From the NCBI GenBank assembly GCA_004022145.1, contig RCNU01000006.1: a stretch of DNA of 64,000 bases; one strand, written 5' to 3'. The DNA is from Paecilomyces variotii. Taxonomy: Eukaryota. How positions within the stretch are numbered: the first letter of the stretch is position 1; the number at the start of each line of letters is the position of its first letter. Made by a program: the position numbers and the translations under genes. The notes beneath the pieces are model-generated. The model was given only the letters and a program-made list of their open reading frames with translations. It made no database searches and was not told the DNA's origin. Of this stretch, positions 53,133 through 53,277 are shown piece by piece.

Positions 53133-53262
53133 AGCATGTTAGCTCAGGGGGAGAGCGCGTAAGGAATCACATGACTCAAATACATACATTGAACTGATCC
53201 ACTAACATTACTATAGCGGGCTCATAACCCGGAGGTCCCTGGATCGAAACCAGGACATGCTA
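53133..53262 (+). tRNA. tRNA-iMet: Initiator tRNA-Met(CAT) gene with a 58-nt non-canonical intron (53159-53216) between positions 27 and 28
   Basis: Joining 53133-53158 and 53217-53262 gives a perfect 72-nt cloverleaf: AGCATGT TA GCTC AGGGGGA GAGC G CCGGG CTCATAA CCCGG AGGTC CCTGG ATCGAAA CCAGG ACATGCT A. Initiator hallmarks are present: A1-U72, G29-G31/C39-C41, A54 and A60. Confidence 0.95.
53159..53216 (+). other. Spliceosomal-type intron inside the tRNA-iMet gene
   Basis: 5' GTAAGG, branch site CACTAAC (53200-53206), 3' TAG; 58 nt, the same architecture and size as mRNA introns in this window. Confidence 0.85.
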
Positions 53263-53270
53263 TTCAATTC

Positions 53271-53277
53271 TTTTTTT
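53271..53277 (+). terminator. RNA polymerase III terminator (T7) of tRNA-iMet
   Basis: TTTTTTT starting 9 nt after the discriminator base. Confidence 0.75.

Follow-up and report, generated by a model that had tools for sequence, protein, structure and literature searches.

Candidate spliceosomal introns in initiator tRNA-Met genes of Paecilomyces variotii and other fungi

An initiator tRNA-Met (iMet) gene at positions 53133-53262 of a 64,000-nt stretch of Paecilomyces variotii DNA, the whole of which we call the window, is interrupted between tRNA positions 27 and 28 by an insert that bears the signals of an mRNA intron. We consider it probable, judging from the sequence, that this nuclear gene is functional and encodes the initiator tRNA of the cytoplasm, and that the insert is a genuine U2-type spliceosomal intron. 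Interrupted genes of the same design were also found in metagenomes. Together they appear to make up a recurrent class of ascomycete iMet genes, whose members have one to three such introns, placed at several sites in the D-arm and on the 5' strand of the anticodon stem, and coexist with copies that lack introns. The initial annotation of this locus had treated the gene as a singular oddity, a view that does not survive the recurrence described below. For the broader proposal, that ascomycetes mature part of their initiator tRNA via the spliceosome and that these genes are a widespread functional class invisible to annotation, we judge the chances to be about even.

Results

An initiator tRNA-Met gene is split by a GT-AG insert

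The interrupted gene lies on the plus strand. Exon 1 (53133-53158) supplies tRNA positions 1-27, namely the 5' strand of the acceptor stem, the D-arm, G26 and C27, and contains the A box (53140-53150). Exon 2 (53217-53262) supplies positions 28-72 (53217-53261) and the discriminator base A73 (53262). It comprises the rest of the anticodon arm with the anticodon CAT (53223-53225), the variable loop, the T-arm with the B box GGATCGAAACC (53241-53251), and the 3' strand of the acceptor stem. A run of seven T residues resembling a Pol III terminator (53271-53277, plus strand) follows 8 nt past the discriminator.

Between the two exons lie the 58 nt of the candidate intron (53159-53216, plus strand). 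Its predicted 5' splice site, GTAAGG, occupies 53159-53164 in the exon context CGC/GTAAGG, and its predicted 3' splice site, TAG, occupies 53214-53216 in the context ATAG/CGG. The predicted branch-site motif CACTAAC (53200-53206) fits the fungal CTRAY consensus and places the presumed branch A at 53205, 11 nt ahead of the last insert base; the 3' part of the insert reads CACTAAC-ATTACTA-TAG. No TTTT run occurs within 53159-53216. Donor, branch motif, acceptor, A box, B box and T7 run are all present as the initial annotation had described them. A weaker CTGAT also lies inside the insert, 19 nt ahead of its end.

When the insert was deleted, ARAGORN recognized a 72-nt tRNA-Met(CAT) with four perfect stems. 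Every pair of the 7/4/5/5 cloverleaf is formed, and the restored tRNA displays A1:T72, the acceptor ends AGC...GCT, a T-loop reading ATCGAAA (A54, A60), and an anticodon stem of CCGGG/CCCGG with three closing G:C pairs. The identity elements of eukaryotic initiator tRNAs are A1:U72, three G:C pairs at 29-31:39-41, and A54 and A60 in the T loop. By its sequence, the restored tRNA is of the eukaryotic cytoplasmic initiator tRNA-Met type.

The boundaries of the insert are sharply defined by the tRNA itself. When deletions of 57-59 nt were enumerated at all positions, a single one restored a perfect 7/4/5/5 cloverleaf, namely the deletion that runs precisely from GT to AG, in agreement with the earlier claim that removing the insert yields a flawless 72-nt initiator. 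The related claim that shifting the boundaries by 1 nt breaks the anticodon stem was borne out in part: mismatches do arise, but ARAGORN still calls tRNA-Met at shifts of 1-2 nt. Across both strands of the 64-kb window, 2 of 127,884 58-mers fit the pattern GTRHG..CTRAC(5-20 nt)YAG, and the insert is one of the two, since it matches the pattern itself. In the unspliced sequence no tRNA-Met was found by ARAGORN, by ARAGORN with its intron option, or by Rfam at E≤1, just as had been predicted of standard tRNA finders.

The insert also has the size of local mRNA introns. A bem46-like alpha/beta-hydrolase gene lies upstream of the tRNA gene, and the product of its exon 2 shares 99% identity with a protein of Paecilomyces variotii and 85% with one of P. 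lecythidis. Its single mRNA intron, located by tblastn against the window and used as a comparator, measures 53 nt (51922-51974, plus strand; GTAGGA..CTGAT..CAG). Most of the window's remaining ORF-bridging candidates measure 51-57 nt. At 58 nt, the insert therefore agrees in size with its mRNA counterparts, as had been claimed. No second copy or donor of the insert was found in the 64-kb window, where the best blastn-short match is 11 nt, and no target-site duplication is visible at the insert ends. Work on reverse splicing by Lee and Stevens in 2016 reportedly offers a possible origin of introns. The cited part of a further source likewise presents intron transposition via reverse splicing as a possible origin (PMC11146597).

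Interrupted initiator genes recur in other fungi

We scanned JGI metagenome contigs for iMet positions 29-62, leaving T-stem positions 49-51 free and the sequence upstream of position 29 unconstrained. The scan returned 37 matches in 36 loci. Twenty-six are uninterrupted iMet genes, one is truncated at the end of its contig, and 10 are interrupted; the last group represents 8 distinct genes (L011, identical to L025; L014; L015, identical to L021; L019; two genes in L026; L029; and L031). All interruptions lie upstream of position 29. That they seem confined to iMet genes and to the 5' half is to be read in light of the pattern, which demanded an intact stretch from 29 to 62 and sought iMet alone. 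The eight genes hold 10 inserts of 37-55 nt. With the window copy included, the set consists of nine genes with 11 introns of 37-58 nt at five sites.

At site 15/16, introns of 51 nt (L011), 52 nt (L031) and 38 nt (L014) all begin with GTAATT. Site 24/25 holds a 53-nt intron in L029 (GTAAGT) and a 38-nt intron in L014, and site 26/27 a 53-nt intron in L019 (GTATGT...TACTAAC...CAG). The window insert of 58 nt shares site 27/28 with a 55-nt intron in L015, and at site 28/29 the two L026 genes carry introns of 37 and 38 nt and L014 one of 38 nt. GT...AG ends and a CTRAN motif are present in 11/11 iMet introns, with the putative branch A 7-12 nt ahead of the 3' end. Three of the 5' splice sites are weak, namely GTACTA in the two L026 genes and GTAAAA in L014. 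The initial annotation had proposed checking whether inserts in relatives retain GT, the branch motif and AG; in the eight other iMet genes they do, and the remainder of each insert differs.

To locate the boundaries we used an enumeration of deletions that is blind to splice signals, and in every interrupted gene the deletion from GT to AG restores a perfect 7/4/5/5 cloverleaf. This deletion is the sole solution for L015; for the other inserts located in stems, no more than two solutions exist, of which it is one. For the D-loop inserts it is one of many, as the cloverleaf test does not constrain the D-loop; there the GT..AG choice gives AGCGGAA, the same D-loop as in the intronless gene L024. 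L014 has exactly one solution, which consists of three 38-nt GT..AG introns separating exons of 15, 8, 4 and 45 nt, and no solution with one or two introns exists. The tRNA intron of L015 measures 55 nt, as does the intron of the neighboring Sly1 gene (5677-5731). No ORF-bridging intron candidates were found in L014 and L026, the loci with 37-38-nt introns.

Eight different mature sequences are encoded by the nine genes, and at least eight taxa are therefore involved, at least seven of them beyond the window. Neighboring genes give an indication of what these taxa are. The Sly1 protein of L015 shares 83-88% identity with proteins of Eurotiomycetes (Aspergillus, Paecilomyces, Elaphomyces), and L031 neighbors a gene for a Sld3-family protein whose nearest clusters are ascomycete. 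The neighbor in L011 provides a weak ascomycete lead (score 0.89), and that in L014 has solely environmental relatives. Where they can be placed in this way, the carriers appear to be ascomycetes. The window and L015/L021, which are interrupted at the same site, have no shared flanks by tblastx (E<1e-8).

Two further searches looked beyond this set. In prokaryote genome contigs, a 23-nt stretch over iMet positions 24-46 gave 21 hits, of which 21/21 are of the bacterial tRNA-fMet type with an uninterrupted 3' half and 0 are eukaryotic. Testing 15,706 GT..CTRA..AG deletions over 296 kb with ARAGORN recovered iMet genes and artefacts only, from a sample whose mere handful of other tRNA genes leaves the test powerless for other isotypes.

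Exons and splice signals are conserved and intron interiors are not

The exons of the interrupted genes have diverged in a manner that preserves the tRNA. All 21 stem pairs are intact in 9/9 intron-bearing genes, despite six forms of the acceptor stem and six of the T-stem. Paired changes are seen in the T-stem, with CCTGG/CCAGG against CTTGG/CCAAG and AGTGG/CCACT against AATGG/CCATT; a compensatory T-stem pair separates the window gene from L015, and another likewise separates L026 from L014. When the introns of the window and L015 were compared, their interiors proved unalignable, whereas GT, the CTAAY-ATT region and AG align. In the organism of L015, the tRNA encoded by the interrupted copy is identical to that of two intronless loci found in the same metagenomes. 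Conserved exons and signals combined with free interiors are expected from selection on a spliced gene, not from the decay of a dead copy, and from this pattern we infer that the interrupted genes work.

The genes also keep the architecture of Pol III transcription units. A and B boxes are present in 9/9 intron-bearing genes, and each has a T5-T9 run at most 35 nt downstream. TTTT occurs in 0/11 introns, an absence that is not significant when compared with shuffles (P=0.12).

A close relative is intronless at the same locus

Contigs from four RNA libraries, three metatranscriptomes and one probable transcriptome, were examined at the locus. Those from two libraries, X16 and X18, retain the bem46 intron; they therefore behave as DNA and are uninformative on splicing. 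Among the contig pieces listed, none covers 53159-53216, which proves nothing. In library X17, a joint of 53158 to 53217 that skips the 58 nt from GT to AG was considered as a splicing product and rejected, because the contig differs from the window in the flanks on both sides and contains one mismatch in each exon. The joint comes from another iMet gene, one without an intron.

The X16 contig is approximately 99% identical to the window over 1,376 nt (51767 to 53150), after which it has a different D-loop and passes straight into the anticodon stem. The same locus is thus intronless in a close relative. The contig merges into high-depth intronless iMet sequence that is evidently multi-copy: the depth over the intronless iMet body is 401 against 38 in the flanks for X16, and 39 against 17-20 for X18, or roughly 2-10x that of single-copy sequence. 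The D-loop of the window gene, AGGGGGA, differs from the intronless consensus. Because there is an intronless allele at the locus and intronless iMet sequence at raised depth, the window copy is one of several and dispensable, and it could be recently disabled or recently changed. The initial annotation had suggested that iMet supply is coupled here to mRNA splicing, and this suggestion is weakened by the intronless gene at the same locus and by the multi-copy depth.

That the intron is present in one and absent in the other of two relatives that are ~99% identical reflects either its recent acquisition in the window copy or, as may be more likely, its loss in the relative. Two observations favor loss: the intronless allele matches the multi-copy sequence, the outcome expected of gene conversion, and L015, from another Eurotiomycete, has an intron at the same site, an argument in which no synteny backs orthology.

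These observations bear directly on a different reading of the gene, according to which intron-derived or intron-like DNA inactivated one of several iMet genes, the cell's iMet comes from intronless paralogues, and decay or gene conversion of the interrupted copy is pending. In favor of such a history stand the relative that is intronless at the locus and merges into multi-copy iMet sequence and the D-loop that departs from the intronless consensus, and standard tRNA maturation has no known means of removing a 27/28 insert that lacks a bulge-helix-bulge (BHB). However, all 71 tRNA positions of the window gene give perfect stems, and the initiator identity elements are kept. The design moreover recurs in eight genes from at least seven other taxa, with intact exons, compensatory changes and terminators, a picture that dead copies arising independently would not present, and random insertions would not bring GT, a well-spaced branch motif and AG every time. 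We regard a dead copy as unlikely.

Proposed transcription and removal of the insert

For a working, spliced gene, the anatomy suggests the following path. Pol III, most likely the polymerase of this gene, would start at the internal A and B boxes, traverse the T4-free intron and end at the T7 run. The precursor would keep its acceptor/T-arm half, with the D and anticodon arms disrupted. The spliceosome would then use GTAAGG, CACTAAC and TAG, and the 58 nt would leave as a lariat, either before or after end-trimming. The anticodon stem could then fold, and normal tRNA maturation would ensue. Splicing of Pol III transcripts is reported to be inefficient outside U6.

The tRNA may instead derive from a Pol II transcript, either spliced read-through from the bem46-like gene or an independent ncRNA, from which RNase P and RNase Z would free the tRNA, the Pol III product being a dead end. 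Spliceosome recruitment is normally coupled to Pol II, and the bem46-like gene lies on the same strand with its stop codon at 52633-52635, ~500 nt upstream of the tRNA. On either side the insert is bordered, by chance or not, by open frames of 45 codons or more. Against such an origin, a T7 run and a run of ~21 T lie between the bem46-like gene and the tRNA, and 9/9 genes keep internal promoters together with a nearby downstream T-run. The neighborhoods of the interrupted genes differ, as the comparison of the window with L015 illustrates, and U6 of Schizosaccharomyces pombe is described as a spliced Pol III transcript in work cited in the relevant passage of PMC5832005. Production by Pol II read-through is a live alternative for the polymerase, and one to which we assign a distinctly low probability.

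The insert is not of the tRNA-endonuclease type

Canonical tRNA introns removed by the tRNA endonuclease (TSEN) differ from the insert in several respects. The insert is at 27/28 and not at 37/38, and none of the 11 iMet introns is located at 37/38. We tested the register that a BHB requires, in which bulges of 3 nt surround the two cuts and a 4-bp helix separates them; there the window insert forms 2/4 central-helix pairs and 0/3 outer-helix pairs. The minimum-free-energy fold of the precursor contains no BHB and keeps the acceptor stem and the T-arm. A complete 4/4 central helix is found in 0/11 iMet introns, which form 1-3 of the 4 pairs and have weak flanking helices. The window also contains an intron-bearing tRNA gene at 63535-63633 (minus strand); if its intron is taken to lie at 37/38, GT and AG are both missing from the ends of that intron. 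By position and predicted structure, then, the window insert is not a tRNA intron of the TSEN/BHB type, as the initial annotation had held.

Ectopic and multiple tRNA introns do exist in some eukaryotes, according to the cited part of PMC3728597, and the three-intron gene L014 is superficially like archaeal multi-intron tRNAs, but a non-canonical intron excised by the tRNA endonuclease or some other protein enzyme, in the style of Cyanidioschyzon merolae, nucleomorphs or archaea and with only coincidental GT-AG ends, is highly improbable given the incomplete central helices in all 11 introns, the fold of the precursor, the canonical intron of the window with its different ends, and the occurrence in 11/11 of GT, AG and a suitably spaced branch motif, which would not be expected.

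Discussion

Our search of the full-text literature, with subscription-only papers and supplements outside its scope, turned up no tRNA gene described as having a spliceosomal intron, which accords with the earlier statement that no such case is established. The closest parallels are other small RNA genes of fungi. In the sources as cited, mRNA-type introns are described in the U6 genes of S. pombe and others (Tani and Ohshima, 1989/1991; Canzler et al., 2016, cited in PMC5832005 and PMC5855946). As in the iMet genes, a short GT-AG intron with a branch site interrupts a small, structured Pol III gene that has a T-run terminator, intron sites vary among lineages, and intronless copies or lineages coexist with interrupted ones. 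Unlike U6, a tRNA has its own TSEN and ligase system and is no part of the spliceosome, and the splicing of the iMet introns is a prediction. Because the tRNA is not part of the spliceosome, the argument that U6 introns arose by reverse splicing at the catalytic center is inapplicable to it.

The U3 snoRNA genes offer a second parallel. Yeast U3 is a Pol II gene, whereas the iMet genes described here have a tRNA-type Pol III architecture. The likeness lies in the introns: the U3 genes of S. cerevisiae and Neurospora crassa carry spliceosomal introns, and in the cited account these have normal spliceosomal signals within a small ncRNA gene and lie in its 5' part at few recurrent positions (PMC5832005).

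Among tRNAs, the ectopic introns of C. merolae and nucleomorphs and the multiple introns of archaea are described in the cited passages as BHB-defined and cut by the tRNA endonuclease (PMC3728597, PMC4090602). Those genes resemble ours in that, as far as these passages go, they are interrupted outside 37/38, sometimes repeatedly, and are missed by standard finders. They differ in that the iMet introns are without a BHB and have GT-AG ends and branch signals. Canonical 37/38 TSEN introns share with the iMet introns the interruption of the lower half of the tRNA, which leaves the acceptor/T-arm half whole, and differ from the window insert in position, in its GT..AG ends and in its branch motif.

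Current annotation is poorly suited to finding such genes. Running ARAGORN with its intron option on 8 of the interrupted genes gave four miscalls, as tRNA-Stop(tta), tRNA-Asn(att), tRNA-Cys(aca) and tRNA-Ser(cga), and no call for the other four. According to the cited part of its description, tRNAscan-SE 2.0 seeks non-canonical introns in archaeal mode only (PMC8450103). As finders run in eukaryotic mode miss or mislabel interrupted genes, fungal iMet gene counts are probably too low.

In the part cited, a 2025 paper distinguishes three intron classes with no relation to one another, the spliceosomal, the XBP1-type and the tRNA introns; the first of these reside in Pol II transcripts, and the last are excised by the tRNA endonuclease (PMC12530127). 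If the spliceosome removes the iMet inserts, this three-class division would fail for an essential tRNA, and tRNA would become the third small RNA, after U6 and U3, that routinely holds spliceosomal introns. The interrupted genes would then provide a natural system for studying the encounter of a Pol III transcript with the spliceosome, the processing of micro-exons of 4-8 nt, and the gain and loss of introns, the last with one locus that is found with and without its intron in ~99% identical relatives and with five sites that recur across taxa. If this holds, translation initiation in some species may depend on the capacity of the cell for mRNA splicing.

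Intron variation and flanks of the initiator tRNA gene

A contig from X16, an RNA-library run with DNA-like behavior (its bem46 intron is retained), is approximately 99% identical to positions 51767–53150 of the window. At the same locus it carries an initiator tRNA-Met (iMet) gene that lacks the insert and differs in its D-loop. Therefore, the presence or absence of the intron varies among very close relatives.

The stretch that separates the upstream bem46-like gene from the iMet gene has two plus-strand T runs, at 52941–52961 (roughly 21 T) and 53116–53122 (T7), and either one would be a stop for Pol III arriving from upstream. 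Positions 52929–52972 were skipped as a repeat in read mapping. Open frames of 45 codons or longer flank the iMet intron on either side (53012–53158 and 53217–53453), and its removal would fuse them in frame; their translations look like low-complexity chance frames.

Elsewhere in the window, ARAGORN labels 63535–63633 (minus strand) as Tyr(GTA) and sets its intron at 31/32. Placing the intron at the canonical 37/38 position yields a Gly(UCC) tRNA, in agreement with the initial annotation of a Gly tRNA near 63.5 kb. This gene faces a second, non-identical and intronless tRNA-Gly(UCC) at 63205–63276.

Interrupted and uninterrupted iMet genes in metagenome contigs

The iMet gene on metagenome contig L014 (L014:120–304, minus strand) holds three inserts of 38 nt, each GT..AG, at sites 15/16, 24/25 and 28/29. 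Only one combination of GT..AG deletions restores a perfect cloverleaf, leaving exons of 15, 8, 4 and 45 nt. The relatives of this organism are environmental only.

A second contig, L026, carries a head-to-head pair of intron-bearing iMet genes (L026:2211–2319, minus strand, and L026:2434–2541, plus strand) that are spaced approximately 115 nt apart. Their introns, of 37 and 38 nt, show a few interior differences but have GTACTA, ACTAAC and the 3' end in common. The D-loop of the minus-strand gene reads ACTGTTA, without the usual GG, and this copy may be degenerating.

Contigs L003, L007, L028 and L033 possess 75-nt iMet genes that are uninterrupted, have AT-rich flanks and lie only a few nucleotides from a tRNA-Leu(CAA), joined in L003 by a tRNA-Lys. 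These are tRNA arrays from a non-fungal eukaryote.

Annotation of interrupted iMet genes

Run with its intron option, ARAGORN made no call at the interrupted genes of L011, L014, L015, L021 and L025. Across L019, L026, L029 and L031 it returned the wrong labels tRNA-Stop(tta), tRNA-Asn(att), tRNA-Cys(aca) and tRNA-Ser(cga), every one of which includes a bogus anticodon-loop intron. Further interrupted iMet genes may be hidden behind such calls in fungal annotations.
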